49,923 nt of DNA from an uncultured Acidimicrobium sp. (GTDB lineage: Bacteria; Actinomycetota; Acidimicrobiia; Acidimicrobiales; Ilumatobacteraceae), in the NCBI GenBank assembly GCA_903895515.1, contig CAITUB010000008.1, positions 1-49,923 on the forward strand. The letters are read 5' to 3'. Positions 7,548 through 49,216 of this stretch are shown in pieces. Position 1 is the first letter of the stretch. The number at the start of each line of letters is the position of its first letter. Position numbers and translations under genes: made by a program. The notes beneath the pieces are model-generated. The model was not told the origin of the DNA and made no database searches. It worked only from the letters and a program-made list of their open reading frames with translations.

Positions 7548-7954
7548 TGACCCCAGCAGACCTCACTCCAGAAATGTTGGAGTTCCTTCGGGAACGACAT
7601 TTAGCAACGCTCACTACCCTTCGCCCAGATGGTTCACCTCACGTGGTGCCAGTTGGTTTCACATACGACGAAGACAAACACGTAGTACGCGTGATCACGT
7701 TTGCACCATCGCATAAAGCAAAACATGCGCAACGCGGTGGACGAGCAGTGGTGTCGCAAGTAGATGGTGGTCGTTGGCTCACACTAGAAGGAACAGTGCG
7801 TCTGGCAACACGAGAGAACGACAATGCGGAAGTGAACGAAGCGTGTGCTCGTTATGCGCAGCGTTACCGTCAACCAAAGGAACGCGACAACCGCGTAGCA
7901 ATCATTATTTCTGTCGACCGCATAATGGGTCGGGTAACTGCAGCTAACGAGTAG
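7547..7954 (+). CDS. PPOX-class (pyridoxamine 5'-phosphate oxidase fold) protein, probably F420-dependent
   Basis: MTPADLTPEMLEFLRERHLATLTTLRPDGSPHVVPVGF. The ATG overlaps the permease TAA (taATGa). The upstream extension in the track (from 7310) lies inside the permease gene. Confidence 0.65.
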   Translation: MTPADLTPEMLEFLRERHLATLTTLRPDGSPHVVPVGFTYDEDKHVVRVITFAPSHKAKHAQRGGRAVVSQVDGGRWLTLEGTVRLATRENDNAEVNEACARYAQRYRQPKERDNRVAIIISVDRIMGRVTAANE

Positions 7955-17638: not shown

Positions 17639-18118
17639 TTAGTGCTTATAGCGCGCGAGCGCGTCTTGAATTTCCTTAGTAGCGGCGTCGCGGCCTTCCC
17701 AGCCCTTCACCGTGGTGTCTTTGTTTGGCTCAAGCAGTTTGTACACCTCGAAGAAGTTGCCCACTTCATCAAGTAGGTGTTCTGGCAAGTCTTCAATGTC
17801 TTGATACGCCGCATATCGAGGATCATGTGAAGCAACACAGAACACTTTCGCGTCTGGACCCTTTTCATCCGACATCCAGAACACGGCAACTGGCCGCACC
17901 ATGACGTGGCATCCAGAAAAGGTTGGTTGGCTGAGCCACACCAATGCGTCAAGTGGGTCACCGTCTTCGCCAAGTGTGTTGGGAAAAAAGCCATAATCAA
18001 GTGGGTACTGCGTTGCAGTAAAGAGCGTGCGATCAAGCCAAATCTCGCCTGTGTCGTGATTCATTTCGTACTTATTGCGTGACCCCTGAGGGATCTCAAC
18101 GATCATTTCAACTTCCAT
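17639..18118 (-). CDS. ppa: inorganic pyrophosphatase
   Basis: EIPQGSRNKYE, YPLDYGFFPNTLGEDGDPLDALV. 159 aa. Confidence 0.93.
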   Translation of the reverse strand: MEVEMIVEIPQGSRNKYEMNHDTGEIWLDRTLFTATQYPLDYGFFPNTLGEDGDPLDALVWLSQPTFSGCHVMVRPVAVFWMSDEKGPDAKVFCVASHDPRYAAYQDIEDLPEHLLDEVGNFFEVYKLLEPNKDTTVKGWEGRDAATKEIQDALARYKH

Positions 18119-26246: not shown

Positions 26247-26311
26247 AGGCGCAGGTTAGAACCAAATTGATAATTCCTGACTACCAAGGTGGCACTACGA
26301 TAATCACCACT

Positions 26312-27337
26312 ATGCGCGCACTATTTAAGCCATCCGCGGCACCTGGTCTGGAAATGATCGAGTGCGCTGAACCAAATCCCGGTCCAAACGACGTCAAGAT
26401 CCGTGTTGAAAAAACCGGCATCTGTGGCACCGACCTCCATATTGAGTCGTGGGATGCATGGGCCGCATCAGCAGTAAATGCACCGCTCATCATTGGTCAT
26501 GAATTCTCTGGTCGCATTGTGGAGTTGGGTTCAGAAGTGACATCACTCGAAGTTGGTGCGCTGGTGTCGGGTGAAGGACACATCATTTGTGGAACGTGCC
26601 GCAACTGCCGTGCTGGTCGACGACACATGTGTAAGAACACTTCAAGTGTTGGAGTGAACCGCAATGGTGCATTCGCCGAATACGTGGTTATTCCTGCAAG
26701 CAATGTGTGGGTTCACTCTGCAGCAGTCGACGCCGAACTTGGTGCGATCTTCGATCCGTTCGGAAACGCAGTGCACACCGCACTCACCTTTCCCGTTGCC
26801 GGTGAAGACGTATTAATTACTGGAGCAGGGCCGATTGGACTCATGGCTGCCAAAGTGGCGCGACACGTTGGTGCGCGCTATGTGGTCATTAGCGATATCA
26901 ATGAATCGCGTTTGGAACTTGCTCGCTCAATGGGCGTTGACATTGCAGTGAATCCAATGACTTCTTCAATTGCCGCAACACAGAAAACTCTGGGCATGAA
27001 AGAAGGCTTTGACGTTGCACTCGAGATGAGTGGAGCTCCGACTGCGCTTCCAGACATTTTGGACAACCTCAGCCACGGCGGTCGCATTGCCGTGCTTGGA
27101 TTGCCAAGCAAAGAAATCTCCATCAACTGGGCGAAGCTGGTCACTCACATGATCACCATTAAGGGCATTTACGGCCGCGAAATGTATGAGACGTGGTACG
27201 CAATGAATTCACTGATTCAAACTGGCCTCGACATTCGCGACGTGATCACCGATCGCTTTCCTGCAAACGAGTGGGACAAAGCATTCGCTGCAGCACGTTC
27301 ATCAAATGCTGGCAAAGTAATCATGGATTGGTCATAA
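26312..27337 (+). CDS. tdh: L-threonine 3-dehydrogenase
   Basis: MRALFK... GICGTDLHI, GHEFSG, and the CGTCRNCRAGRRHMC structural zinc site. 341 aa from the ATG at 26312. It sits directly upstream of kbl. Confidence 0.88.
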   Translation: MRALFKPSAAPGLEMIECAEPNPGPNDVKIRVEKTGICGTDLHIESWDAWAASAVNAPLIIGHEFSGRIVELGSEVTSLEVGALVSGEGHIICGTCRNCRAGRRHMCKNTSSVGVNRNGAFAEYVVIPASNVWVHSAAVDAELGAIFDPFGNAVHTALTFPVAGEDVLITGAGPIGLMAAKVARHVGARYVVISDINESRLELARSMGVDIAVNPMTSSIAATQKTLGMKEGFDVALEMSGAPTALPDILDNLSHGGRIAVLGLPSKEISINWAKLVTHMITIKGIYGREMYETWYAMNSLIQTGLDIRDVITDRFPANEWDKAFAAARSSNAGKVIMDWS

Positions 27338-27346
27338 GGCAGAGTC

Positions 27347-28528
27347 ATGTACACAAGCGTTAAAAACGACCTGAAGAAGACCCTCGAAGACATTCAAACT
27401 GCGGGTTTATACAAGCGTGAGCGTTTGATTGACTCTCCGCAGGCTTCACATGTTCTCAGCAGCACTAAAGACCTCATTAACTTTTGCTCAAACAACTACA
27501 TGGGACTCGCCAATAATTCTGCGATTATTTCAGCGGCCAAAGAGTCGCTCGATATCAATGGCTTTGGCATGGCAAGCGTGCGGTTTATTTGTGGAACCCA
27601 GTCGCAACACGATGAACTTGAATCACGTTTGTCCATATTGCTCGGAACCGACGCCACCATTTTGTTTCCTTCGTGCTTCGATGCAAATGGTGGAGTATTC
27701 GAAGTATTGCTCGACCAAGACGACGCCGTTATTTCAGACGAACTAAATCACGCCTCCATCATTGACGGAATTCGTCTGTGCAAGGCAACCCGTTACCGCT
27801 ACAAGAACCGCGACATGGCCGACCTCGAGGCCCAACTAGTTGCTGCTCGCGGCGCTCGTCGAACACTGATTGTCACCGACGGCGTGTTCTCCATGGACGG
27901 ATCGTTTGCTCCACTCAAAGAAATTTGTGACCTTGCCGACAAATACGAAGCGATGGTCATGGTGGATGACTCACACGCCGTTGGCTTCATTGGCGCAACA
28001 GGCGCAGGCACACCTGAAAAGTTTGGCGTTCGTGACCGCGTTGACATTATTTCGGGAACACTCGGCAAAGCGTTAGGCGGCGCATCTGGTGGCTACATTT
28101 CGGCGCACCAGGAAATCGTTGATCTACTTCGTCAACGTGCTCGCCCGTACTTGTTCTCCAACTCCATTCCACCAACGGTGGTGGCTGGATCGCTCGTTGC
28201 GCTCGATCTCGTTGCACAAGGTGCGAACACACGCGAAACCCTTCGAGAGAACGCTAAATATTTCCGCGATCAAATGGCAGCTGCAGGATTCACGTTGCTT
28301 CCAGGAGAGCATCCAATTGTTCCTGTCATGTTTGCCGACGAACACGAAGCCGTGCGCATGGCAGCAGAGCTATTCAAACTTGGCATCTACGTTGTGGCGT
28401 TTTCGTACCCCGTTGTGCCAATGGGTAAGGCTCGTATTCGCGTACAAGTGTGCGCAACGCACACGAAGGCAGATATCGATACTTGCGTTGCTGCGTTTGT
28501 TACTGCGCGCGAACTCGGCAACAACTAG
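27347..28528 (+). CDS. kbl: glycine C-acetyltransferase (2-amino-3-ketobutyrate CoA ligase)
   Basis: AONS-family PLP enzyme: DDSHAVGF, SGTLGKALGG (PLP Lys). 393 aa, paired with tdh. Confidence 0.88.
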   Translation: MYTSVKNDLKKTLEDIQTAGLYKRERLIDSPQASHVLSSTKDLINFCSNNYMGLANNSAIISAAKESLDINGFGMASVRFICGTQSQHDELESRLSILLGTDATILFPSCFDANGGVFEVLLDQDDAVISDELNHASIIDGIRLCKATRYRYKNRDMADLEAQLVAARGARRTLIVTDGVFSMDGSFAPLKEICDLADKYEAMVMVDDSHAVGFIGATGAGTPEKFGVRDRVDIISGTLGKALGGASGGYISAHQEIVDLLRQRARPYLFSNSIPPTVVAGSLVALDLVAQGANTRETLRENAKYFRDQMAAAGFTLLPGEHPIVPVMFADEHEAVRMAAELFKLGIYVVAFSYPVVPMGKARIRVQVCATHTKADIDTCVAAFVTARELGNN

Positions 28529-35899: not shown

Positions 35900-38458
35900 A
35901 TGAACGTCCCCGAAAAGCCAACCCTCGACAACCTGGAATCCTCTCTCATCGAAAAATGGGAGCAATCGGGCGTCTACACCTTCGATCGCAGTGCATCGCG
36001 CGACCAAGTATTTGCCATTGACACCCCACCACCAACTGTCAGCGGTTCGTTGCACATGGGACACGTATTTAGTTACACACATACCGACACCGTTGCCCGC
36101 TTTTGGCGCATGCGCGGTAAGAGCGTGTTTTACCCAATGGGGTGGGATGACAACGGTTTGCCAACCGAACGACGAGTTCAGAACTACTTCGGCGTGTCGT
36201 GCGACCCAAACGTTGCCTATGACCCGAAGTTCACTCCGCCATTTCGTGGTGACGTGCCCAAGGATCATCGCGCAGTAGCAATTTCGCGTCCGAACTTCAT
36301 TGCGTTGTGTGTCGAACTAACACACCAGGACGAAAAGATTTTTGAAGACCTATTCCGCAGGCTTGGGCTATCGGTCGACTGGTCGTTGTTGTACACCACT
36401 ATTAGTGACTACGCGCGTCGAACAAGTCAGGCTGCATTCATTCGCAACTTGTCTCGCGGTGAGGCGTACGCGCAAGAAGCGCCAACGCTGTGGGACGTCG
36501 ACTTCGGTACTGCAGTTGCGCAAGCCGAACTTGAAGATCGCGAGCGACCTGGCGCGTATCACTCCATCAACTTTGCGCGCACCGACGGTTCGGGCAACGT
36601 CACCATTGCCACTACTCGCCCAGAATTAATTCCGGCTTGCGTTGCACTCGTTGCTCACCCAGATGACCCGCGCTACCAGCCACTGTTTGGCAAAACTGTG
36701 CGCACTCCTTTGTTCGATGTTGAAGTTCCTGTCGTTGCACACGAACTTGCTCAAATTGACAAGGGCACTGGCATTGCCATGATTTGTACATTCGGCGACC
36801 TCACCGACGTCATTTGGTGGCGCGAACTTAATTTGCCAACTCGGCCAGTGATTGGTCGCGACGGCCGCATTGTTGCCGACATGCCTGACTGGATTACGTC
36901 AGCAACAGGAACTGCAAACTACGCAGCACTCGCTGGAAAAGGCGTGAAGCAAGCGCAAACAGCAATCGTTGACATGCTGCGCACAAGCGGCGACATGAAC
37001 GGCGAACCAGAGCCAATCACTCACCCGGTGAAGTTCTTTGAAAAAGGCGACCGCCCACTCGAAATTGTGACCAGCCGTCAGTGGTACATCCGCAATGGTG
37101 GTCGCGACGAAATACTGCGGGCTGCATTGTTGAAGCGTGGCGACGAGCTTGCATGGCACCCCGACTTCATGCAACACCGCTACACCAACTGGGTTGGCGG
37201 GCTGAATGGCGACTGGCTCATCAGTCGTCAGCGTTACTTCGGAGTTCCGATTCCGTTGTGGTATCCACTTACCGCCGCAGGCGAACCCGACTTCAATAAC
37301 CCAATAATTCCGAGCGAATCAGACCTGCCGATCGACCCAAGTTCTGACATTCCTGCTGGCTTTACCGAAGCACAACGGGGATTCGCTGGCGGATTCATGG
37401 GCGAACCAGACGTCATGGACACATGGGCAACATCGTCGCTCACTCCGCAAATTGCGGGCCGTTGGATTGACGACCAGAAGTTGTTTAACAACATCTTCCC
37501 GATGGATGTTCGCCCACAAGCTCACGACATCATTCGTACGTGGTTGTTTGCCACCACCGTTCGTTCGCACTTCGAGCACAACATTGCACCATGGAAGAAC
37601 GCCGCGCTATCTGGATGGATTCTTGACCCAGACCGCAAAAAGATGTCGAAGTCAAAGGGCAACGTCGTAACACCAATCGATTTGTTTGAGCAGTACGGCA
37701 GCGATGCAGTTCGCTACTGGGCAGCAAGTGCTCGCCCTGGAGTTGACACCGCATTCAGCGAAGACCAAATGAAGGTTGGCCGCAAGCTTGCGACAAAATT
37801 GTTGAACGTCACCAAGTTTGTCCTCGGCTTCGGTGAGGCAAACCCAACTGCCACTCCAACAGAAGCAGTTGACATTGCCATGCTCGCCCGCTTGGCATCA
37901 GTTGTTGACGAAGCAACTACTGCTTTCGAAACATATGACTATGCACGAGCGCTCGAGAAGTCCGAATCATTCTTCTGGTGGTTCTGCGACGACTATGTAG
38001 AACTCGTGAAAACTCGCGCATATTCGGAAGGCACTGGTTCAGATTCTGCTCGTGCAGCGTTGCAACGCGCACTTAGCACTCTGCAGCGATTGTTCGCACC
38101 GCACATTCCATTTGCAACCGAAGAGGTGTGGAGTTGGTGGCAAACCGGAAGCATTCACCGTGCATCGTGGCCAACACGTGCAGACTTGCTTGGCGGAACT
38201 TCGACTGTTGAAGCAACCGAAGACTTGCTGGACGCGGTATGTAACGTGCTCGCTGTCATTCGCCGTACCAAAACCGAGGCAAAAGTTTCACAACGCGCCG
38301 AAGTTGAACATGTGCTCGTTTCTGCAACTGATACACAAGTATCACTTTTGCAATTGGGTCTCGTTGACTTGCTGAACGCTGGTGTTGCTCAAGAGATTGA
38401 GTTCGTCGCGCATACAAGTGAGCACATTTCAACAACCGTTCGCTTGTTGGCCCAATGA
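35900..38458 (+). CDS. valS: valine--tRNA ligase
   Basis: PPPTVSGSLHMGHVFSYTHTD (HIGH-type), KMSKSKGN. 852 aa. Confidence 0.9.
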   Translation: MNVPEKPTLDNLESSLIEKWEQSGVYTFDRSASRDQVFAIDTPPPTVSGSLHMGHVFSYTHTDTVARFWRMRGKSVFYPMGWDDNGLPTERRVQNYFGVSCDPNVAYDPKFTPPFRGDVPKDHRAVAISRPNFIALCVELTHQDEKIFEDLFRRLGLSVDWSLLYTTISDYARRTSQAAFIRNLSRGEAYAQEAPTLWDVDFGTAVAQAELEDRERPGAYHSINFARTDGSGNVTIATTRPELIPACVALVAHPDDPRYQPLFGKTVRTPLFDVEVPVVAHELAQIDKGTGIAMICTFGDLTDVIWWRELNLPTRPVIGRDGRIVADMPDWITSATGTANYAALAGKGVKQAQTAIVDMLRTSGDMNGEPEPITHPVKFFEKGDRPLEIVTSRQWYIRNGGRDEILRAALLKRGDELAWHPDFMQHRYTNWVGGLNGDWLISRQRYFGVPIPLWYPLTAAGEPDFNNPIIPSESDLPIDPSSDIPAGFTEAQRGFAGGFMGEPDVMDTWATSSLTPQIAGRWIDDQKLFNNIFPMDVRPQAHDIIRTWLFATTVRSHFEHNIAPWKNAALSGWILDPDRKKMSKSKGNVVTPIDLFEQYGSDAVRYWAASARPGVDTAFSEDQMKVGRKLATKLLNVTKFVLGFGEANPTATPTEAVDIAMLARLASVVDEATTAFETYDYARALEKSESFFWWFCDDYVELVKTRAYSEGTGSDSARAALQRALSTLQRLFAPHIPFATEEVWSWWQTGSIHRASWPTRADLLGGTSTVEATEDLLDAVCNVLAVIRRTKTEAKVSQRAEVEHVLVSATDTQVSLLQLGLVDLLNAGVAQEIEFVAHTSEHISTTVRLLAQ

Positions 38459-39714
38459 CCAAATACCAGCGCCCGCGCTCGCACTATGCGGTGCTGATAT
38501 TCAACATTGCAATTGCCGCTTCATTGCTCATCGTTGGTGGTGGCCTGTTGTATGCAGGCCAGCGATTGGGTGCTCGTCAAGTTGTCAGTTTGAATCGTGG
38601 CGACGATATTGCCGTCAACGAAGACGCCAATATCGCTCCATCAGACCAATGGAACCTCAGCGAGGGCGACCTCGAGGCAAAAAACTTCCTGCTCACCGGC
38701 TCCGATAATGGCAGCTGTGTAGACCCAAATTCCCCATATGCAGGGGCTTTTGGTGACCGCACATCATTCGGCGAACGCAGCGACACCATCATGATTATTC
38801 GGGTCAATCCGAAGGACAACCAAGCCGCATTTCTCTCGTTTCCACGCGACCTGTGGGTGAAGATTGCAGGATCAACACGATCGAACCGAATTAACACTGC
38901 ATTCGAACGCAAGAACCCCAACACGCTTGCTGACACCATTTATCAAAACTTTGGAATCAACATTGATCACTACGTCAACATTGACTTTTGCGCCTTTAAA
39001 GAAATCGTGGATGCCGTAGGTGGAGTAAAGGTTCCGTTCCTCTACGAAACCCGAGACAAGAAAACAGGTCTGTACGTTCCAGCACCAAGTTGCTTCGAGT
39101 TCAGCGGCGATCATGCACTTGCATACGTTCGTTCACGCTCTGGATATTCATACTTTGACACTGCAAAAAATACATGGGTCTCTGACGGAACCTCCGACCT
39201 CGGTCGAATCAGTCGCCAGCAGGACTTCATTCGTCGAGCAATGCAACGCGCACTCGACAAAGGATCGTCTAGTCCAAAAGTTGCAAACCAACTATTGAAC
39301 GCCGCGTTAAAGAACGTCATTACCGATGACCGGCTTACTCCTATCACCATGTTGCAACTTGCTCAAGCAATGCGCAATTTGAACACCAGTGGAATTCCTA
39401 CATACACAGTTGAAAGTTCTGGACAAATGATTGGCGATCAAGCCGTCCTTGTTCCACGAATTCAAAACGACACTATGCGCGAAATTCTTGCGCTATTCCA
39501 GGGCAAAGCAAGTTTTGCAACACCGGGTTCTGCTGCGAACAATCCTTCGCCGGATACCACTTCTGCTGAAGGTGCCATGGGAGCAATCATTTCTACGGTT
39601 GCCTACATGAATGCACAACCAAGTAACGGTGTTACTCCAACAACAATTCCTGTTGTTGCACCAGAACAAAACTCGTACGGCATTTCGCCACCAAACGACC
39701 CAAGCTGTCGTTAG
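38455..39714 (+). CDS. LCP family (LytR-CpsA-Psr) cell-envelope phosphotransferase
   Basis: N-terminal TM anchor, SDTIMIIRVNP, FLSFPRDLWV, NRINTAF. ATGA overlap with the valS stop. Confidence 0.82.
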   Translation: MTKYQRPRSHYAVLIFNIAIAASLLIVGGGLLYAGQRLGARQVVSLNRGDDIAVNEDANIAPSDQWNLSEGDLEAKNFLLTGSDNGSCVDPNSPYAGAFGDRTSFGERSDTIMIIRVNPKDNQAAFLSFPRDLWVKIAGSTRSNRINTAFERKNPNTLADTIYQNFGINIDHYVNIDFCAFKEIVDAVGGVKVPFLYETRDKKTGLYVPAPSCFEFSGDHALAYVRSRSGYSYFDTAKNTWVSDGTSDLGRISRQQDFIRRAMQRALDKGSSSPKVANQLLNAALKNVITDDRLTPITMLQLAQAMRNLNTSGIPTYTVESSGQMIGDQAVLVPRIQNDTMREILALFQGKASFATPGSAANNPSPDTTSAEGAMGAIISTVAYMNAQPSNGVTPTTIPVVAPEQNSYGISPPNDPSCR

Positions 39715-40559
39715 TCAAGAACGCGACGCATTGCGTCGGGAATATCACTTGGCCCACTCACCGTTGTAAAACGGGCTCCAACAGAATCTGCAAACACTCG
39801 CGCCTCTGCATCATCTTCTAACGGCGCAATGATTACAAGTTCGTCCAATGACTTCGCTGCGGCTCGCGCATCGCCATCAACAGTTGCTCGACAATCAGAC
39901 AACAGCACAGTGATTCTCCGTGATGCTCGTGAGCGTGCAAGTTGTTCTCGTGATGCATGCAATGCCCCGGCCAAGTCGGTGGTACCAAACCCGCGAAGCG
40001 CAAGCACGGTGTTCACCACGTCATCGCCAGACTTATGAACGTCTTGTGACTTCGCCGCAATTACGTCTTTTCCGAATACCAGCACGCTGTAGTCAGCTGG
40101 CTCACGGGCAGCAATAGAGGCTGCAGCCATTGCCGAATTAGCAAGTGGCTTGCCGCCCATCGAGCCACTGCGGTCGACCACAAGACTGATTGCTGTGCCT
40201 GGTCGTAGCCATCCGCGCACACGTAATTCATCGGCATCTACTACACCAGTTGCGCGCAATTCGTTTAGCGCATCCAAGCTTGCATCAATATCAATGTCGC
40301 CAGCATCGGGTTGATATTTGCGCAGCGACATTTTCCCAATTCCGCGCGGTCGAGGTTTTCCACTTTGTGCCAGTTCAATCAAAATTCGTCCGGCCAGTTT
40401 TCGTGCGAGTTCACGTAATGCAGGGTCGGTTGCAGCTGTTAAGTCGGCAAGCATCGACAACGTTTCATCTGGCGAATTCTGCATCGCCTCATCGAAAGCA
40501 ACTTCGTCAAGTTCGCCAACTTCAGGAGAGATCTCTTCAAACCCTGAGTGCTTCGACAA
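39711..40559 (-). CDS. VWA domain protein (MoxR partner)
   Basis: MIDAS motif VVDRSGSMGG. 282 aa. TTG start without a clear SD, so the start is uncertain. Confidence 0.72.
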   Translation of the reverse strand: MSKHSGFEEISPEVGELDEVAFDEAMQNSPDETLSMLADLTAATDPALRELARKLAGRILIELAQSGKPRPRGIGKMSLRKYQPDAGDIDIDASLDALNELRATGVVDADELRVRGWLRPGTAISLVVDRSGSMGGKPLANSAMAAASIAAREPADYSVLVFGKDVIAAKSQDVHKSGDDVVNTVLALRGFGTTDLAGALHASREQLARSRASRRITVLLSDCRATVDGDARAAAKSLDELVIIAPLEDDAEARVFADSVGARFTTVSGPSDIPDAMRRVLD

Positions 40560-40627
40560 TTCTTTGCGTGATGTGGTGCGCTTGCTCGCCTGTTGCGCTG
40601 CCTGTTCGGCCTGCGCGCCTTCTTTAA

Positions 40628-41572
40628 CTAACGGGAGTTCGTTGCCCCAGTCGGGGCGCCAGCTTTTCCCGCGTCGCCGTCTTCCGCTTTCACGCCAAAC
40701 ACATCTGCGAAAATTTCACTAATCACTTCTTCTGCGGTGCGCACACTTCCCTCGCGCAACTTCACCCGACCTGTAAGCGCCACAAGCGCGCTGTCTAATC
40801 CAATTGAGGTGGTTTCAACCGACGCATTACGCATCGCCGACAAACTCGCAGCAACAACTGCCGTATCAATTGCACCACGAACCGATGAACCAAAACGCAA
40901 GTCGGAATGATTCCGCGTGCGTCGTACCATTTCCACTACTTGGCCAACCCAGTCGCGCGACACCTTTGACTTGCTGTTCTGTTTCGTGGTTTCGCGAATC
41001 ACGATTTCTACTTCGTCTGTCGCACTTTGATATGTCATTGCAACGCGGCACACGCGGTCGTACACCGCACTCGAAATACGTGCTGTGCCCACAGCATCAA
41101 ACGGGTTCATTGCCGCAACAAGTCGAAAACCAGCAGCGCTTTTCACGGTGCCAAGTCGTGGAACCGTAATTTCACCTTCGCTCATCACGGTGATGAGCAC
41201 GTTCAATGTTTCTTCCGGAATGCGGTTGATTTCTTCTACGTACAACAACGAACCATCACGCAATGCCGACACCAGTGGTCCATCAACAAACACATCCGCG
41301 CTGTAGCCATCCGTCAGCACTCGCGCAGGGTCGAAGTGTCCGACTAAACGTGCTGGAGTGAGTTCGGCATTGCCTTCAACAAAGGCGAACCCAACGCCAA
41401 GTGCTTCGGCAACAGATCGTAAAAGCGTTGATTTTCCTGTGCCCGGAGGGCCTTCCAACAAGATGTGGCGACCACCATGCAATGCAGCGACGACAAGTTC
41501 TAGTTCGCGCGCGCGACCAACAACCGAAGCTGCCGAAACGCGAAGAACGTCGCTTGCCGACGCTGCTGCCAT
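40628..41572 (-). CDS. MoxR-family AAA+ ATPase
   Basis: HILLEGPPGTGKST (Walker A), LLYVEEINR (Walker B), AAMNP. 314 aa. Confidence 0.88.
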   Translation of the reverse strand: MAAASASDVLRVSAASVVGRARELELVVAALHGGRHILLEGPPGTGKSTLLRSVAEALGVGFAFVEGNAELTPARLVGHFDPARVLTDGYSADVFVDGPLVSALRDGSLLYVEEINRIPEETLNVLITVMSEGEITVPRLGTVKSAAGFRLVAAMNPFDAVGTARISSAVYDRVCRVAMTYQSATDEVEIVIRETTKQNSKSKVSRDWVGQVVEMVRRTRNHSDLRFGSSVRGAIDTAVVAASLSAMRNASVETTSIGLDSALVALTGRVKLREGSVRTAEEVISEIFADVFGVKAEDGDAGKAGAPTGATNSR

Positions 41573-41584
41573 GAGTGTGACTAA

Positions 41585-42697
41585 CTAGTCGAACTTGATA
41601 ACGCCACGGATGTTTTCTCCGTCACGCATTGCTCGGTAACCCTCGTTGATGTCGCTCAGTTTGTATTCCTTGGTGACAAGACCGTCGAGGTCGAGCTGAC
41701 CTTCGCGATACAGGCCCATCAACTTTGGAATGTCGGAACGTGGGTTGCCCGAACCAAACAGCGAACCAACCAACTGCTTTTCCATCAAGGTGAGATCGAG
41801 CAAGCTCATGCCTGCACCAAACTCTGCTGCCGGGTGAATGTTGGTTACAACAACACGACCACGTTTTGCGGTGAGTGCCATTGCTTCGTGAATAACAGCG
41901 CCGTTACCAACGCCCATGGTCATAATCACTTTGTTGGCCATGGTTCCCCATGTCAATTCTTGCAACAGAGGCAACGCTTCAGCCATCGAGTTTGCAGTAT
42001 GTGTTGCACCAAACTCCATTGCCTTTTCGCGCTTGAACTCCACTGGGTCAATTGCAACAATGCGCTTTGCACCAGCAATACGAGCACCCTGAATAGCGTT
42101 GGCACCAATTCCACCGGCACCCACAACGACAACTGTGTCGCCAGGTTTTACTTCTGCTGCATACACGCTTGAGCCCCAACCGGTAACTACACCACAACCG
42201 AGCAAACATGCGCGGTCAAGAGGCACATCTTTTTCAATCTTGATGCAACTTGCTTCGTGCACAACCGTGTGTTCAGCAAACGTTCCAAGGAGGCACATGA
42301 TGCCAACGTCTTTCCCACCGGCGTGGTGACGCGATGTCTGATCACTAATTTGCTTTCCTGTTGCCATATACGCACCAAGGTCGCACAAGTTTTGGTGACC
42401 AGTGCTGCAGCTCACGCAACGACCACATGACGGAATGAATCCGAACACCACGTGATCGCCCGGTGCCAACCAACTGACATTCGATCCAACTTGTTGCACA
42501 ACACCAGCACCTTCGTGACCACCGATAATTGGAAGTTCAAATGGCAAGTCGCCAGTAACCACGTGCTCATCGCTATGGCACATGCCGGAAGCGGCAAGCT
42601 TGACCAACACTTCGTTTGGACCCGGCGCATCAAGTTCAATTTCTTCGATTGTCCATGGAGCATTCAGCTCCCACAACACTGCTGCCTTCGTCTTCAC
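41585..42697 (-). CDS. Zn-dependent alcohol dehydrogenase, NDMA-dependent / mycofactocin-associated type
   Basis: MKTKAAVLWELNAPWTIEEIELD, GMCHSDEH catalytic Zn site, structural CGRCVSCSTG, VVVVGAGGIG Rossmann motif. GTG start with GAGGGGG SD. Divergent from mftA. Confidence 0.8.
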   Translation of the reverse strand: MKTKAAVLWELNAPWTIEEIELDAPGPNEVLVKLAASGMCHSDEHVVTGDLPFELPIIGGHEGAGVVQQVGSNVSWLAPGDHVVFGFIPSCGRCVSCSTGHQNLCDLGAYMATGKQISDQTSRHHAGGKDVGIMCLLGTFAEHTVVHEASCIKIEKDVPLDRACLLGCGVVTGWGSSVYAAEVKPGDTVVVVGAGGIGANAIQGARIAGAKRIVAIDPVEFKREKAMEFGATHTANSMAEALPLLQELTWGTMANKVIMTMGVGNGAVIHEAMALTAKRGRVVVTNIHPAAEFGAGMSLLDLTLMEKQLVGSLFGSGNPRSDIPKLMGLYREGQLDLDGLVTKEYKLSDINEGYRAMRDGENIRGVIKFD

Positions 42698-42818: not shown

Positions 42819-42968
42819 ATGGACACCACAGCACCACTAGCCGTTGATACCGCCCAGGCCCAGACTGCAAGCCACGACAGCGTTTCCTCGGCAACCACCA
42901 CACCGCACATCGTTGAAGAACTCCTCGTTGAGGAAATTTCCATCGACGGCATGTGTGGTGTGTACTAA
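42819..42968 (+). CDS. mftA: mycofactocin precursor peptide MftA
   Basis: Not in the ORF track (49 codons). My translation is MDTTAPLAVDTAQAQTASHDSVSSATTTPHIVEELLVEEISIDGMCGVY followed by TAA. The C-terminal IDGMCGVY signature is present and the ORF ends 17 nt upstream of mftB. An alternative in-frame GTG start lies at 42816. Confidence 0.9.
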   Translation: MDTTAPLAVDTAQAQTASHDSVSSATTTPHIVEELLVEEISIDGMCGVY

Positions 42969-42985
42969 CCCGCAGACGTTTCACT

Positions 42986-43255
42986 ATGACCGTCACCCTG
43001 GATTCAGCGTGTGAGTTGCACCCTCAAGTTGCACTTCGTCCTGAACCATTCGGAGCACTTGCCTATCACTATGGCAATCGCAAACTTGTTTTTTTGAAAC
43101 ACCCAGACGTCGTTGCTGTTCTGCGCGATGTTGCTGCACACGACACACTCGCCGACACGTTGGTTGCACACAATGTTGCACCAGAACGTTGGAATTCATT
43201 TGTGAGCGCACTCAGCTCACTTGAGACATCGGAGATTATTCGTGTCCGTCAGTAA
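42986..43255 (+). CDS. mftB: mycofactocin biosynthesis chaperone MftB (RRE/PqqD-like)
   Basis: LHPQVALRPEPFGALAYHYGNRKLVFLK carries the RPExFGAL signature. ATG at 42986 is preferred. The track start at 42953 (GTG) overlaps the last codons of mftA. Confidence 0.9.
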   Translation: MTVTLDSACELHPQVALRPEPFGALAYHYGNRKLVFLKHPDVVAVLRDVAAHDTLADTLVAHNVAPERWNSFVSALSSLETSEIIRVRQ

Positions 43256-44363
43256 CTTAACCACACAACTCAAGGGCGGGCTTGACGCGCCAATTTGTTT
43301 GACATGGGAACTCACCTATGCATGCAACTTGCAATGCATCCATTGTTTGTCCAGTAGCGGTCGTCGCGACCCGCGAGAGCTTGACACTGATCAAGTGAAG
43401 AACGTTCTTGACCAGTTACGCGACTTGCAAGTGTTCTACATCAACATCGGTGGCGGCGAGCCAATGATTCGCAAAGACTTCTTCGAGATTCTTGAACATG
43501 CCGAGCACAACAACATTGGCGTGAAGTTTTCCACCAACGGCACTTACATCACTGCAGAAAATGCGAAGCGCCTTGCTTCCATGAACTACCTCGATATTCA
43601 AATCAGCATGGACGGCGTCGACCGTGCAACAAATGACGCCGTGCGCGGTGAAGGTTCGTTTGACACATCTATTGCTGCCATGAACCACTTGCGTGATGCA
43701 AACTTTGGACCGTTCAAAATTTCCGTAGTGATGACCCGACACAACGTTGATCAGCTCGATGCTTTCAAGCAACTTGCCGATAGCTACGGCGCGCAACTGC
43801 GTATCACGCGCTTGCGTCCTGCCGGTCGTGGTGCAGATACATGGAATGAATTGCACCCAACTCAGGCACAGCAACGACAGATCTACAACTGGCTTATTGC
43901 ACATGGCGACAACGTGCTTACTGGCGACTCGTTTTTCCATCTCAATGCATTTGGTGAATCGCTTCCAGGTTTGAACTTATGTGGCGCTGGTCGCGTGGTG
44001 TGCCTCATCGACCCAATTGGCGATGTGTATGCATGCCCGTTTGTGATTCACGATCAATTCAAAGCAGGTTCGGTTCACGATGCGGGCGGCTTTGCGAACG
44101 TGTGGCGCAACAGCGATCTATTCCTCTCGCTACGCGAACCAGAGTCGGAAGGTGCATGCACATCGTGTGGCAACTATGACTCATGCCAAGGCGGTTGCAT
44201 GGCGGCAAAGTTCTTTACTGGCTTGCCACTCGATGGCCCAGACCCAGAATGTGTAATAGGCGCAGGCGAATCCTTGCTGAAGAACGCAACCGTGACCCTC
44301 ATTCCAAAACCGAGCATGGACCATTCGCGTAAAGTTTCGGTAACTATTGGGGGAAACAAGTAA
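43221..44363 (+). CDS. mftC: mycofactocin radical SAM maturase MftC
   Basis: GLDAPICLTWELTYACNLQCIHC (CxxxCxxC), SPASM cysteines CGAGRVVC...CPF...CTSCGNYDSCQGGCMAAKFFTGLPLDGPDPEC. Start is TTG 43221 or in-frame GTG 43242; both overlap the end of mftB. Confidence 0.93.
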   Translation: MRHRRLFVSVSNLTTQLKGGLDAPICLTWELTYACNLQCIHCLSSSGRRDPRELDTDQVKNVLDQLRDLQVFYINIGGGEPMIRKDFFEILEHAEHNNIGVKFSTNGTYITAENAKRLASMNYLDIQISMDGVDRATNDAVRGEGSFDTSIAAMNHLRDANFGPFKISVVMTRHNVDQLDAFKQLADSYGAQLRITRLRPAGRGADTWNELHPTQAQQRQIYNWLIAHGDNVLTGDSFFHLNAFGESLPGLNLCGAGRVVCLIDPIGDVYACPFVIHDQFKAGSVHDAGGFANVWRNSDLFLSLREPESEGACTSCGNYDSCQGGCMAAKFFTGLPLDGPDPECVIGAGESLLKNATVTLIPKPSMDHSRKVSVTIGGNK

Positions 44364-45001
44364 TGGACTTTTCATTGAACGGCGTTGAGCCGATTTATGT
44401 AGCGGGCGCAATTATCGTGTCCTACTTTCTCGGCACTATTCCAAGCGCGCTCATCGTTGCTAAGCGCGGCGGTGTTGATGTAACCGCAGAAGGATCTGGT
44501 AACCCTGGAACGTCAAACGTGGTTCGCCTTCTTGGTTGGAAGTACGGCCTCGTGGTGTTTGTATCCGATGTATTGAAGGGTTCTGCCTCGGTTGGTATTG
44601 CGTACTACCTCACACATCACTTCGGTGATGGTCTTAACGTTTCATACTTGGCGTATGCATGCGCATACGCAGCGGTGCTTGGTCACACGTTCCCCGTCAC
44701 TCGTGGTTTCCACGGCGGTAAAGGCGTGGCAACAGGTGGCGGGACCATGTTCGTGCTGTACCCAGTAATGAGTGCAGTGTTGTGCACCTCGTGGTTCGTA
44801 TTGCGCAAACTCACTGGCAAGTCTGCACTTGCTTCACTCATCATCACCATCGCAGTACCTGTGTATGTCATTGCCACTGTTGGATTCGGCGAACCAGACT
44901 CGTGGCAAATTGCTGCCGTACTTGGACTCGTTGGCATGATCATCATTCGTCACCTGCCAAACATTCGACGCATGCGCGCGAACGAGGAACTCGCCGCGTA
45001 A
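44363..45001 (+). CDS. plsY: glycerol-3-phosphate acyltransferase PlsY
   Basis: GSGNPGTSNV, GHTFPV...FHGGKGVATGGG, RHLPNIRRM. The ATG shares its A with the mftC TAA. Confidence 0.85.
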   Translation: MDFSLNGVEPIYVAGAIIVSYFLGTIPSALIVAKRGGVDVTAEGSGNPGTSNVVRLLGWKYGLVVFVSDVLKGSASVGIAYYLTHHFGDGLNVSYLAYACAYAAVLGHTFPVTRGFHGGKGVATGGGTMFVLYPVMSAVLCTSWFVLRKLTGKSALASLIITIAVPVYVIATVGFGEPDSWQIAAVLGLVGMIIIRHLPNIRRMRANEELAA

Positions 45002-45022
45002 ATTGCTCGCGCTTCCACCAAT

Positions 45023-45637
45023 ATGATTTCACTCATCAATGAGTTCTTTAACGGACTCAAGGATTTTTCTGATTCCTATTGGTTTTACGTCATTATCTTT
45101 GTTATCGCGGTGCTCGATTCCGTGATTCCAATCGTGCCCAGCGAAACATTGGTCATCATTGGTGGAGTTAGCGCTGGTTCGGGTTCGCTATCACTTGGAA
45201 TCGTTCTGTTATGTGCAGCGACTGGTGCATTTATTGGCGACCATGTTTCATACGAAATTGGGAAAAAGGCGAGCGCATTTGTTACCCGTCGTTATGAACG
45301 AACCGAAAAGGGCGCAAAGCGACTCAACGCAGTTATTCACCACATCAATGAACGTGGTGGATTACTGCTTGTGACTGCTCGCTTTATTCCAGGCGGGCGA
45401 ACGATCTTGACCCTGACCTGCGGTATTACCCACCAACGCCAACGATGGTTTTCGGGTTGGATTGCCGTCGCCACCATTATTTGGGCAACATATGCATCGT
45501 TGCTTGGGTTTATCGGCGGAAAGACATTTGCCGACAATCACACGCTGGCCTTTACCTTCGCTTTTGGTTGCGCCATTGGAGTTACGGGTGTGATTGAACT
45601 TGCGCGTTTCATTTTGAAAAAACGCAAGTCACAATAA
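45023..45637 (+). CDS. DedA family (VTT domain) membrane protein
   Basis: VIPIVPSETLVIIGG, RFIPGGRT. 204 aa. Confidence 0.8.
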   Translation: MISLINEFFNGLKDFSDSYWFYVIIFVIAVLDSVIPIVPSETLVIIGGVSAGSGSLSLGIVLLCAATGAFIGDHVSYEIGKKASAFVTRRYERTEKGAKRLNAVIHHINERGGLLLVTARFIPGGRTILTLTCGITHQRQRWFSGWIAVATIIWATYASLLGFIGGKTFADNHTLAFTFAFGCAIGVTGVIELARFILKKRKSQ

Positions 45638-45640
45638 GGC

Positions 45641-46318
45641 ATGCCCAGTTCGCCAACGTGGCCTGAAATTCCACGCAATGCATGTGTCGTCATTCCCGTT
45701 GGCTCTTTCGAACAACACGGTCCGCACTTACCGCTCGACACTGATACACAAATTGCAGTGCACCTGTGTACCGCTGCCACAAAAGGCATCAACCACGTCG
45801 TTATTGCCCCACCGCTGTCAATTACCGCAAGCGGCGAGCACGCAGGATTTCCAGGCACTATTTCTATTGGCACCGAAGCTCTCACCACAGTGATCGTTGA
45901 GCTAGTTCGATCTTGTGATTGGGCAAGTGGCGTGATCTTGGTGCATGGTCACGGTGGAAACTTGGCAGCCGTACAACGAGCAAATACGTTGTTGCATTCT
46001 GAGCAACGCAACATCGCTAGTTGGTGGCCACGCATTCAAGGAGCCGATGCCCATGCCGGACACACGGAGACCTCGCTTATGTTGGCAATTGATCCGCGCT
46101 TAGTTCGTGCCGACAAATTGAACGTGGGCAATGTGCAGCCGATGAGCGAAGTGCAACATGACTTGCAAACACAGGGAGTGAAAGCAGTGAGTGAAAATGG
46201 AATTCTTGGGGACGCTCGCATGGCAACCGCAGAACATGGCGAACAGTTGCTAGCAATGCTCACCGAAGACCTGCGCGCATTCATTCACGCCACTTGCACG
46301 CAATGGAACACTGCGTGA
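45641..46318 (+). CDS. mftE: mycofactocin precursor peptidase MftE (creatininase family)
   Basis: PVGSFEQHGPHLPLDTD, HGHGGN, HAGHTETS. It starts 3 nt after the dedA stop. Confidence 0.85.
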   Translation: MPSSPTWPEIPRNACVVIPVGSFEQHGPHLPLDTDTQIAVHLCTAATKGINHVVIAPPLSITASGEHAGFPGTISIGTEALTTVIVELVRSCDWASGVILVHGHGGNLAAVQRANTLLHSEQRNIASWWPRIQGADAHAGHTETSLMLAIDPRLVRADKLNVGNVQPMSEVQHDLQTQGVKAVSENGILGDARMATAEHGEQLLAMLTEDLRAFIHATCTQWNTA

Positions 46319-47709
46319 CAAGCACTGTTCGCTTCATCGCCGACAGTTCGTGGCGTCGGCCAGCAAACGGAAATGTTGTTCTTGCCGGTTCGCCACTGAA
46401 GTTGTTTTCCCTTTCGCAAGCCGGTCAGGCAATTGCCGAATGCATTGAGCGTGCACAGACTCTTCCTGTAGGTCATGAAGTCCTCACTGAACGATTGCTT
46501 GATGCTGGAGCAATTCACCCAGTTCCAAGCACAGTCGATTCTGCTCGCTTTGTGCTCAACACCGTTACTGCAGTTATTCCTGCCTGCATTCGCACTGCTC
46601 AAGAAGCAGAATCACTGCAGTCGCTCGTTACCTCATGCTCAGCACTGCATGGTGTTGTCGTCGTCGATGACTGCTCGCCACATGCACTTCCCAATCTTGG
46701 TGCGGCACGGGTAATCCGTCTCGAAAAGAACAGTGGACCCGCTGCCGCGCGCAATGCAGGTTTGGCGGTGGTTGATACTCAATTCATTGCCTATATCGAT
46801 GTCGATGTGGCGATTTCCTCCGACACCATTTCGACACTGCTGCCCTATTTCGCAGACGACAAAGTCGCACTCGTTGCACCCCGTGTGAAATCCCCCACAA
46901 CTGCAACCGTTCTTGGGGAATACGAAGCCGTCGCAAGTGTGCTCGACATGGGCGAAACCGAGGCTCGCGTGCGTGCTGGAACTCGCGTCAGTTACGTACC
47001 GTCTGCAATGTGGTTGTGTCGAACTGCATCGCTGCGCTCTATTTCTGGTTTTTCTGATTCACTTCGCTCTGGCGAAGACGTCGACGTGGTGTGGCGCCTC
47101 AACGATGCAGGATGGCGATGTCGCTACCAGCCACAAGCAGAGTGTTCGCATTTGCCTCGCACAACATTGCAGCAGTTCGCGCGACAACGCATGTCGTATG
47201 GAGAATCAGCTGCACCGCTCGCCAAACGACACACAGGGAAACTTGCGCCAGCAAAATTCAATGTGTGGCAAGCATCAACATGGCTCTTAGTTCTGCTCGG
47301 CATGCCATTCATTGCACTTGGAGTTGCAATTGTGGCTTCTGTATCAACTGCAAAGAAACTGAGAAGGTTTCCACAACTGCGTGATGAGAGTTTCCGCATC
47401 GCTCTGCATGGAACAGTACAAAGTGCTCAGACTGCTGCGAGCGCCATCAACCGCGTGTGGTGGCCAATTGCATTTGCGCTTGCATTATTTTCACAGCGAT
47501 TACGAGTGCTGTTCGTAGCTGCAGCACTCGCGCCTGCCGTGTACGAATGGTGGACCAAGCGACCACATCTCGATGTCGTACGTTTTGTGCTCATCAAAAT
47601 GTTGGACAACACCGCTTACGGAGCTGGCGTGTGGAAAGGCGTGATTGCTTCGCGAAATGTCGCGCCGCTTATTCCTACAGTGAAGAAGTCTGTAACGAAC
47701 GAGGAGTGA
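46303..47709 (+). CDS. mftF: mycofactocin system glycosyltransferase MftF (GT2)
   Basis: N-terminal RFIADSSWRRPANGNVVLAGSPLKLFSLS, then VVVDDCS, NSGPAAARNAG, DVDV, plus C-terminal TM helices. Start candidates are TTG 46294, ATG 46303 and GTG 46315 (GTGA overlap with the mftE stop). Confidence 0.85.
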   Translation: MEHCVTSTVRFIADSSWRRPANGNVVLAGSPLKLFSLSQAGQAIAECIERAQTLPVGHEVLTERLLDAGAIHPVPSTVDSARFVLNTVTAVIPACIRTAQEAESLQSLVTSCSALHGVVVVDDCSPHALPNLGAARVIRLEKNSGPAAARNAGLAVVDTQFIAYIDVDVAISSDTISTLLPYFADDKVALVAPRVKSPTTATVLGEYEAVASVLDMGETEARVRAGTRVSYVPSAMWLCRTASLRSISGFSDSLRSGEDVDVVWRLNDAGWRCRYQPQAECSHLPRTTLQQFARQRMSYGESAAPLAKRHTGKLAPAKFNVWQASTWLLVLLGMPFIALGVAIVASVSTAKKLRRFPQLRDESFRIALHGTVQSAQTAASAINRVWWPIAFALALFSQRLRVLFVAAALAPAVYEWWTKRPHLDVVRFVLIKMLDNTAYGAGVWKGVIASRNVAPLIPTVKKSVTNEE

Positions 47710-48172
47710 AGTTATTGCATTCCTCACACACTTCTTGAGGAATAACACCAAATTTCATTAAATATCCAAATGCAATGCAACCGAGGCACACGGCAAATGC
47801 GCTTTCCAGAAACGCTGCGACAACGAGTGCTGCAATGACAAGTTGCGAAGCACCGAATGCACCTGTGATGTACAACACAGATGCGGTAATGGTGAATGCT
47901 GCTCCAACACCTTGAGCAAATCGTTTTGGTGGACCAGGAACAAATCGATGCTGGAGTGAAAGCTTCGGCGTAATCACCTGTGTTGCCAATCGACCAAGTG
48001 GGCTAAATGTTGGGCCGGCCAGCACGCGAGCAATGAACCCATAAGTCAACGGAACAAGAATCCAGCCATTGCCAGTGATCGCAAACGCGATGCCCATGAG
48101 AACTGCACCACCAGCAACGATGCGAGCCGATGTCTCATTCACAGGGTTTGGGAAACTGAAGATTTTCGCCAT
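47675..48172 (-). CDS. DUF4395-like membrane protein
   Basis: FPNPVNETSARIVAGG N-terminus, about 4 TM helices and a Cys-rich C-terminus CLGC...CEEC. 165 aa. Confidence 0.55.
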   Translation of the reverse strand: MAKIFSFPNPVNETSARIVAGGAVLMGIAFAITGNGWILVPLTYGFIARVLAGPTFSPLGRLATQVITPKLSLQHRFVPGPPKRFAQGVGAAFTITASVLYITGAFGASQLVIAALVVAAFLESAFAVCLGCIAFGYLMKFGVIPQEVCEECNNFTPRSLQTSSL

Positions 48173-48232: not shown

Positions 48233-49216
48233 ATGCCCGAAAACAGTCAGATACCGTCAAGTGCAATGACTTTGTGCCTCACCGTGAATCGCCAAGCTTG
48301 GCTCGATCACGTTCGACTTACCGCTTCCCAGCACGGCACCACCCTGCCCGTAGTGAAGGGCAACGGCTACGGGTTTGGTCGCCCAATTCTGTTCGAACAG
48401 ACAGCACATCTTGCTGAGCATGTTGCAGTGGGAAACGTCTATGAAGCCACAGATGTTCCCGCATCGCTTTCTCCTGTTGTGCTCACACCTGTTGGCTCAC
48501 ATATTCCACATTCGCTCCCAACACGCTCAGTACTCACTGTTGGATCGCTCGATCACGTTGCATCGCTTCGCTCACACAATTGGCAAGGCAGTGTGCTCAT
48601 CAAGTTGCAGTCCACCATGCAACGCTTTGGCGTTTCCGGAGGCGACCTGGCTGCACTTCGTTCTGCATGCGAGCAGGCATCGCTCAATGTTGTTGGCTAT
48701 TCAATACACCCTCCACTAAATAACAATGGACAAGACCGCAGTGGCGAAGTGTCGTGTTGGCTAGAACTGTTAACCGATAATTTGCCAATTCACGTCAGTC
48801 ACCTCACTGCTGAGCAAATTGGTCTGTTGCGATCACAGTTTCCGAAGCGCACGTTTATTTCACGCATCGGAACGGCATTGTGGCTAGGTGACAAATCCAT
48901 GATGAAACTGACGGCCGAAGTACTCGACGTTCATCAAGTTGATGGTGGAACAGCTGGTTACCGATCAATCGCACTTCCTGGATCTGGACATCTCGTCATT
49001 GTCGGTGCAGGATCGGCGCACGGAGTAAGTGAAATTGTGGGGGTAGGAAGTCCGTTTCATTTTGCACAGCAACGCATTGCACTTGTTGAACCACCACACA
49101 TGCACAGCAGCATGCTGTTCTTTCCTGCAGGTCAAACCGTTCCGCGCATTGGCGATCAAGTTGACGTTCAGCAACCACTCACCCGCGTAAGCGCTGACAC
49201 CATTTCGTGGGAATAA
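48233..49216 (+). CDS. alanine racemase-fold (fold-type III PLP) protein, divergent
   Basis: LPVVKGNGYGFG resembles the alanine racemase PLP-Lys motif VVKANAYGHG. IKLQSTMQRFG resembles KVDTGMGRLG. Only ~328 aa and divergent elsewhere. Confidence 0.55.
   Translation: MPENSQIPSSAMTLCLTVNRQAWLDHVRLTASQHGTTLPVVKGNGYGFGRPILFEQTAHLAEHVAVGNVYEATDVPASLSPVVLTPVGSHIPHSLPTRSVLTVGSLDHVASLRSHNWQGSVLIKLQSTMQRFGVSGGDLAALRSACEQASLNVVGYSIHPPLNNNGQDRSGEVSCWLELLTDNLPIHVSHLTAEQIGLLRSQFPKRTFISRIGTALWLGDKSMMKLTAEVLDVHQVDGGTAGYRSIALPGSGHLVIVGAGSAHGVSEIVGVGSPFHFAQQRIALVEPPHMHSSMLFFPAGQTVPRIGDQVDVQQPLTRVSADTISWE

Follow-up and report, generated by a model that had tools for sequence, protein, structure and literature searches.

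Where is mftD? A mycofactocin locus of a freshwater member of the Ilumatobacteraceae that most likely belongs to a split system

Work on mycofactocin has centered on mycobacteria, where the genes of the system lie in one cluster. The window studied here, a stretch of 49,923 nucleotides (nt) of contig CAITUB010000008.1 (assembly GCA_903895515.1, an uncultured Acidimicrobium sp. of the Ilumatobacteraceae), holds a mycofactocin (mft) locus at 42819–47709, in which plsY and dedA stand between mftC and mftE and mftD is missing. MftD performs the oxidative deamination of 3-amino-5-[(p-hydroxyphenyl)methyl]-4,4-dimethyl-2-pyrrolidinone (AHDP) to premycofactocin. How, then, could this organism arrive at a redox-active cofactor? 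The first-pass annotation had offered three answers: mftD lies elsewhere in the genome, the product differs from known mycofactocins, or a non-homologous enzyme performs the step. The comparison with relatives favors the first of them, as mftD is found as an orphan gene in low-GC Ilumatobacteraceae and is never linked to mftC in this clade; the other two are less favored. Judged from sequence, the window most likely represents a genuine, working mycofactocin locus in a split arrangement—a variant of the known system and not new chemistry.

Layout of the locus

The seven genes mftA-mftB-mftC-plsY-dedA-mftE-mftF are co-oriented and form a single tight operon, with gaps or overlaps of 0–21 nt between neighbors. 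Five of them exceed the NCBIfam curated (equivalog) cut-offs by which mft genes were identified. The precursor peptide MftA (42819–42968, + strand, 49 amino acids; TIGR03969, 53.8 bits at a cut-off of 25) has the canonical C-terminus IDGMCGVY, as read from the translation; on L005, L007, and L192 (L numbers denote the compared contigs and loci), MftA was called as PF23709. It is followed by the precursor-binding chaperone gene mftB (42986–43255, +; TIGR03967, 90.4 bits against 33), which overlaps by 14 nt with mftC (43242–44363, +), the gene of the radical S-adenosylmethionine/SPASM maturase (TIGR03962, 592 bits against 265). The start of plsY, which encodes a PlsY-type acyl-phosphate:glycerol-3-phosphate acyltransferase (44363–45001, +; PF02660; TIGR00023, 129 bits at a cut-off of 137.2), overlaps the mftC stop by 1 nt. 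The next gene, dedA (45023–45637, +; PF09335), encodes a DedA-family (VTT/SNARE-associated) membrane protein. With 39–49 bits on the UptA/DedA NCBIfam models, whose cut-offs are 236–300, it would be a family member without a specific equivalog assignment. Only 3 nt separate dedA from the creatininase-family peptidase gene mftE (45641–46318, +; TIGR03964, 273 bits against 172), and it is precisely at this junction, where mftD would be expected, that it is missing in the window clade. A 16-nt overlap leads into mftF, the gene of a family 2 glycosyltransferase (46303–47709, +; TIGR03965, 373 bits against 280). NCBIfam scores and gene calls thus bear out the order and coordinates given by the first-pass annotation.

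The same holds for its statement that mftD, mftR, and mftG are lacking in the 50 kb. No FMN_dh, TetR_N, or GMC domain came up when about 40 open reading frames (ORFs) of the window were scanned with Pfam, and the roughly 20 ORFs compared with NCBIfam gave no match to MftD, MftR, MftG, or a mycofactocin-coupled short-chain dehydrogenase/reductase. A tblastn search of the window with the MftD of Actinomadura found no match in any frame at E ≤ 0.01, and the 10 kb past mftF on L001, a contig of a same-species metagenome-assembled genome (MAG), contain no FMN_dh gene.

For two of the three genes this is unremarkable outside the Mycobacteriales: MftR and MftG are non-universal accessory parts—MftG is not found in about 25% of MftC-encoding complete genomes (PMC11778925)—and, because neither is universal, their absence needs no special explanation. 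TetR genes on the mftD contigs of relatives were considered as MftR and ruled out, as they do not match TIGR03968.

Integrity of the locus

A rival explanation for the gap is that the locus is in decay or that assembly has wrongly joined sequences between mftC and mftE, the latter a caveat of the first-pass annotation itself. The exact MftE of the window occurs on at least 20 contigs, and a 95%-identical allele on 11 more, from independent ENA, JGI, Logan, and NCBI assemblies. The order mftB-C-plsY-dedA-mftE-F is common to all these contigs, more than 25 of them preserve the seven ORFs intact, and the plsY-dedA junctions are identical between assemblers and projects. Two same-species MAGs at NCBI (GCA_040401655.1 and GCA_037142455.1) are 97.4% identical to the window at the nucleotide level. 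A misassembly is thereby refuted.

Selection was assessed by the ratio of nonsynonymous to synonymous substitution rates (dN/dS) against L010, a sister-species MAG with 88% nucleotide identity to the window. The ratios are 0.014 for MftC, 0.011 for PlsY, 0.031 for DedA, 0.096 for MftE, and 0.016 for the alcohol dehydrogenase encoded next to mftA; for MftF, the values range from about 0.106 (against L010) to 0.18. Every gene is under purifying selection, and mftA, mftB, mftC, mftE, and mftF are intact. As the first-pass annotation had argued, the pathway is not decaying.

Within L010 itself, mftE shows an apparent frameshift and a small deletion (L010 7472–8129), and the identity to the window drops from 96–100% over mftA-dedA to 77–91% in mftE and 80% in mftF. 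This lesion could be real, mark the edge of a recombined segment, or stem from faulty assembly of the MAG. The frameshift is the one observation in favor of decay or a chimera; set against more than 25 independent contigs with intact ORFs and identical junctions, and against dN/dS values of 0.01–0.11, it leaves this explanation highly improbable.

Split mft loci in the family

The host belongs to the freshwater Acidimicrobiia of the Ilumatobacteraceae type and has a low GC content (0.51). A scan for MftC with one genome per species yielded 80 loci, 71 of which are informative, i.e. have enough sequence downstream of mftC. The closest loci come from freshwater MAGs labeled Actinomycetota, Acidimicrobiaceae, or Ilumatobacteraceae, and the subclade of the window has a GC content of 0.51–0.54, versus 0.6–0.7 for most of the family.

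In 42 of the 71 informative loci, plsY follows mftC—within 300 nt in 31 and within 10 kb in 11. These 42 loci span MftC identities of 71–99% and GC contents of 0.51–0.73, and none has mftD within 10 kb. Among the 26 plsY-carrying loci with at least 6 kb of downstream sequence, 21 lack mftE and mftF as well. A linkage of mftD to mftC appears only in seven outgroup loci, from other Acidimicrobiales, Solirubrobacterales, Actinomadura, Spirillospora, and Frankia. Split mft systems are the rule in the Ilumatobacteraceae-type family. The Mycobacterium-style layout, which had served as the baseline of the first-pass annotation, is not a valid one here, given that many MftC-encoding genomes lack MftG and split loci are normal in the family. 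Its plsY-dedA insertion, for which a synteny check across relatives had been proposed, is real, yet not special to this locus.

Besides the window species, L010, L011, L014, L015, and L017 show the complete arrangement mftABC-plsY-dedA-mftE-mftF; L012, L013, and L037 have the same arrangement minus dedA. A high-GC relative (L029 11171–13800) reads mftABC-plsY-dedA-mftF-Ala_racemase_N with neither mftE nor mftD, which is another sign that single mft genes enter and leave the locus in this family.

A homologue search with an Acidimicrobiales MftD, which returned thousands of matches, contained an Ilumatobacter MAG (L090) with the block mftD-mftE-mftF-HGSNAT/DUF418-Ala_racemase_N. Its HGSNAT/DUF418 and Ala_racemase_N genes are the same that come after mftF in the window species (L001). 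The layout of the window clade accordingly looks as if an mftABC-plsY-dedA block had been fused to an mftE-mftF block without taking mftD along, in a family whose mft genes appear to be routinely spread over two or more loci.

Orphan mftD genes in low-GC relatives

Where mftD resides in the low-GC lineages was indicated by a metagenome scan with an Ilumatobacteraceae MftD, which gave ten contigs with a GC content of 0.50–0.54 that carry mftD alone. A protein search with one of these low-GC MftDs gave hundreds of alleles of at least 86% identity, and about 65 further low-GC orphan-mftD contigs were found. The flanks of the roughly 100 contigs read in all hold no other mft genes. With about 700 bits on TIGR03966, at a cut-off of 471, the orphan proteins are bona fide MftDs.

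The orphan gene occurs in two contexts. The first reads TetR-(ppa)-...-ZnuABC-HAD-mftD. In the second, two dimethylglycine/sarcosine dehydrogenase-like genes are followed by a gene of the MTTB family, mftD, and an ABC-F gene. Here, the MTTB-family (trimethylamine/glycine-betaine methyltransferase-like) gene ends 7 nt from mftD (L193 8417–11173; likewise L172, L213, L233, and about 40 more contigs), and the two dehydrogenase-like genes, of DAO-FAO_M-GCV_T architecture, lie just upstream of the MTTB-mftD pair in one low-GC Ilumatobacteraceae group. This arrangement suggests that mftD may be co-transcribed with a methylated-amine catabolic cluster in the MTTB-context group.

NCBI labels in the clusters of orphan MftDs read Ilumatobacteraceae bacterium, Acidimicrobiia bacterium BACL6, and Acidimicrobium sp. 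Three orphan-mftD contigs carry an inorganic pyrophosphatase that is 86–90% identical to that of the window, and the tetranucleotide composition of these three is in the range of the mftD-less loci L011, L014, and L017. MftD is not known to have a substrate without MftABCE, and all low-GC mftABC(E) loci found lack mftD. Because of these two circumstances, the lineages with an orphan mftD and those with an mftD-less locus must largely coincide.

The fate of mftD in the window species

By analogy to these relatives, mftD is probably present at an unlinked site of the window genome, as a rearrangement typical of the family. The pathway would then run along established lines: MftB and MftC would turn the C-terminal Val-Tyr of MftA into a lactam, MftE would free AHDP, MftF would glycosylate it, and an ordinary MftD encoded at the unlinked site would deaminate AHDP oxidatively to premycofactocin. 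The finished cofactor would be taken as an electron acceptor by the alcohol dehydrogenase. In Mycolicibacterium smegmatis, a deletion of mftD abolishes the mycofactocins and leads to accumulation of glycosylated AHDP (AHDP-n; PMC7491314). Since the alcohol dehydrogenase and the pathway are conserved in the window species, and M. smegmatis without mftD makes no mycofactocin, the deamination step should exist somewhere in the cell.

Alternatively, mftD might truly be lost from the species or its clade, so that a non-homologous enzyme oxidizes or transaminates AHDP, or an amine-type AHDP-n product serves another function. In line with this, about 60 kb around the locus contain no MftD homologue, the 3-nt gap between dedA and mftE leaves no mftD remnant, and no mftD contig is tied to the window species. 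Also, MftE and MftF evolve fast in the window branch: they are 55% and 51% identical to L011, versus 85% for MftC. However, the operon holds no candidate for a replacement enzyme. The Ala_racemase_N-like and HGSNAT neighbors are found together with mftD in Ilumatobacter, and plsY accompanies mft loci that have their D-E-F genes at another place; hence, none of them is a substitute. The very strong constraint on the alcohol dehydrogenase (dN/dS 0.016) points to the production of a redox-active cofactor. In M. smegmatis, AHDP-n does not function as a cofactor (PMC7491314), and sister low-GC lineages retain a true MftD as an orphan gene. We therefore consider a true loss unlikely. Similarly improbable is a broader form of this reading, in which this abundant freshwater species truly lacks MftD and either makes a glycosylated AHDP-type amine or uses an unrecognized non-homologous keto-forming enzyme, while the conserved plsY-dedA pair might belong to a version of the pathway linked to membranes or lipids.

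Individual genes were also considered as replacements for MftD. The PNPOx-like gene at 7310–7954 belongs to TIGR03618, encodes an F420-dependent enzyme, and lies 35 kb away. An aminotransferase gene (27347–28528) adjoins a threonine dehydrogenase gene and is not a credible candidate. The Ala_racemase_N-like gene is ruled out by its co-occurrence with mftD in the Ilumatobacter MAG. Flavoproteins of the old yellow enzyme (OYE) type in relatives, viewed as MftD analogues, are the curated mycofactocin system FadH/OYE oxidoreductases 1 and 2, none of which occurs in the window.

Several observations weigh against an unlinked mftD in the window genome. No mftD contig can be assigned to the window species: the alleles looked up belong to other samples or to lineages that clearly differ, and protein and cluster searches for an mftD of this species gave no sample or MAG overlap. 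Among annotated MAGs, the protein accessions do not match (MftE MEI8069240.1 versus MftD MEI8286104.1 and MEI7966751.1), and the mftD candidate whose abundance footprint matches the window species belongs to a lineage with a GC content of 0.60. In several relatives, mftD lies 4–7 kb from the pyrophosphatase gene. The pyrophosphatase gene of the window (17639–18118) has other neighbors and no mftD within 17–32 kb; hence, this arrangement is not kept in the window. Tetranucleotide similarity cannot separate sister lineages, because two 10-kb pieces of one genome differ by 0.013–0.017, which equals the distance to sister loci. Furthermore, the low-GC MftDs are 64–67% identical to the high-GC Ilumatobacter MftD, versus 77–83% for MftC. 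The link between orphan-mftD and mftD-less lineages is inferred from NCBI labels, pyrophosphatase identity, and base composition.

plsY and dedA inside the locus

Under the favored reading of an unlinked mftD, the embedding of plsY and dedA among the mft genes still calls for an explanation. plsY is normally a single essential gene. The PlsY translation carries GSGNPGTSN, DVLKG, GHTFP, and GGKGVAT, which we take to be the conserved PlsY motifs, and a dedA homologue is present in ten related loci. Most simply, the two would be the cell's own lipid genes in an old, conserved synteny.

The alternative is that plsY and dedA function in the mycofactocin system of the Ilumatobacteraceae, either by coupling it to membrane-lipid synthesis or through a lipid- or membrane-linked glycosylation step by MftF. 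The closeness of plsY to mftC in 42 loci over a GC range of 0.51–0.73 speaks for such a link, and the 1-nt overlap between mftC and plsY suggests translational coupling. In L018 (11142–19540), L033, and L039, the order mftC-OYE1-plsY-OYE2-dedA-etfA-fixC-fixX-...-mftF interleaves both genes with families that NCBI has curated as parts of the mycofactocin system: OYE1 and OYE2 are the FadH/OYE oxidoreductases 1 and 2 (TIGR03996/TIGR03997), and etfA is the mft-associated electron-transfer flavoprotein (ETF) alpha subunit (NF038209). All OYE, ETF, FixC, and FixX genes are missing from the window locus. In addition, the mycobacterial MftR is reported to respond to long-chain acyl-CoA (PMC8728441).

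On the other side, the 11 loci with a more distant plsY have unrelated genes, some on the opposite strand, between mftC and plsY, and the motifs that PlsY keeps are those recognized as housekeeping. The series mftC-OYE1-OYE2-etf occurs without plsY in Acidimicrobiales outside the clade (L074, L076, L081, and L083), and the literature searched does not mention PlsY or DedA alongside mycofactocin. A functional role is thus a tentative possibility at best, and it is compatible with either fate of mftD. What can be stated is that the embedding of plsY, often with dedA, among mft genes is old, stable, family-wide, and undescribed in that literature.

Neighboring genes

Divergent from mftA lies the gene of a zinc alcohol dehydrogenase (41585–42697, −) of the N,N-dimethyl-4-nitrosoaniline-/mycofactocin-dependent subfamily (TIGR03989, 560.9 bits at a cut-off of 440), which is the likely consumer of mycofactocin. 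Many relatives (L013, L014, L017, L029, and L033) carry a tandem of two TIGR03989-like dehydrogenase genes upstream of mftA, whose products are about 84% and 57–60% identical to the window enzyme; the window species keeps one only.

The dehydrogenase gene adjoins a pair (39711–41572, −) of a MoxR-like AAA+ ATPase (40628–41572, −; Pfam bpMoxR/AAA_3/AAA_5, with weak NCBIfam matches only; dN/dS against L010 of 0.05) and its partner, a VWA-domain protein (39711–40559, −; Pfam VWA_CoxE/VWA_2). The pair accompanies mft genes in the Acidimicrobiia: it stands upstream of the alcohol dehydrogenase in Ilumatobacteraceae, is also seen at L085 20079–21056, and lies between mftE and mftF in L088 (12568–14500). 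The two proteins might serve the dehydrogenase as maturation factors or chaperones. Together with a LytR-CpsA-Psr (LCP) gene, the pair forms the order LCP-VWA-MoxR-alcohol dehydrogenase-mftA, which is kept in many relatives. In the same-species contigs L001 (2657–4071) and L006 (2660–4074), the LytR-CpsA-Psr gene (38455–39714 in the window) has about 150 nt of extra sequence near the 3′ end, some 55 nt of which duplicate adjacent sequence of the gene, and it is not called intact in either of them.

Downstream, a DUF4395 membrane protein gene (47675–48172, −; PF14340) is convergent with mftF and overlaps its 3′ end. It is also kept after mftF in L011, L017, and L037 and is a syntenic neighbor with no shown role in the mycofactocin system. 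The Ala_racemase_N-like gene (48266–49216, +; PF01168) encodes a pyridoxal phosphate-barrel protein and is likewise a syntenic neighbor of mftF. Promoter and terminator scans gave nothing above chance, and Rfam and tRNA scans of the window gave no matches.

Farther away, a TIGR03618 PPOX-class oxidoreductase (7310–7954, +) and an F420H2-dependent quinone reductase (PF04075; 13685–14107, −) are encoded; from these genes, the organism appears to use both F420 and mycofactocin. At 26267–28528 (+), an L-threonine 3-dehydrogenase (NF003808, 534 bits) is followed by a class I/II aminotransferase-fold protein, a pair that looks like a threonine degradation module of the Tdh/Kbl type, unrelated to mft.

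Comparison with known systems

The canonical cluster of Mycobacterium and Mycolicibacterium reads mftR-mftA-B-C-D-E-F, with mftG in addition. The window resembles it in the IDGMCGVY tail of MftA, in MftB, MftC, MftE, and MftF above the equivalog cut-offs, and in the adjacent mycofactocin-type dehydrogenase. It differs by the lack of linked mftD, mftR, and mftG, by plsY and dedA between mftC and mftE, and by the divergent MoxR-VWA pair and alcohol dehydrogenase.

Much closer are the other Ilumatobacteraceae-type loci (L012–L065; Ilumatobacter sp. GCA_046290335.1): plsY comes after mftABC, mftD is never linked to mftC, and the genes upstream (LCP-VWA-MoxR-alcohol dehydrogenase) as well as the Ala_racemase_N/HGSNAT neighbors of mftF are shared. 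In contrast to the window, most of these relatives place mftE and mftF at a second locus, together with mftD in the case of Ilumatobacter, and have FadH/OYE (TIGR03996/TIGR03997) and ETF/FixCX genes next to plsY. In the window clade, mftE-mftF directly follow dedA, and the locus is free of OYE and ETF genes.

A published precedent for an mft set without all canonical genes together is Herbiconiux sp. L3-i23, which has lost mftB, mftC, and mftE, keeps mftD, mftF, and mftG, and is decaying (PMC11778925). The window, on the contrary, has mftA, B, C, E, and F in intact and constrained form, and mftD would be the one unlinked gene.

Significance for the family

A contig without mftD is no evidence of new chemistry. 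In the Ilumatobacteraceae, mftD stands by itself in one of two settings: behind a HAD-family hydrolase gene next to a ZnuABC transporter, or directly downstream of MTTB and two dimethylglycine/sarcosine dehydrogenase-like genes. If functional, the embedding of plsY and dedA would tie the cofactor to membrane-lipid metabolism. Calls on the presence or absence of mft genes should be made on whole genomes, and tools that need mftA-F in one uninterrupted cluster would give wrong calls for an entire family of Acidimicrobiia that is abundant in lakes and rivers.

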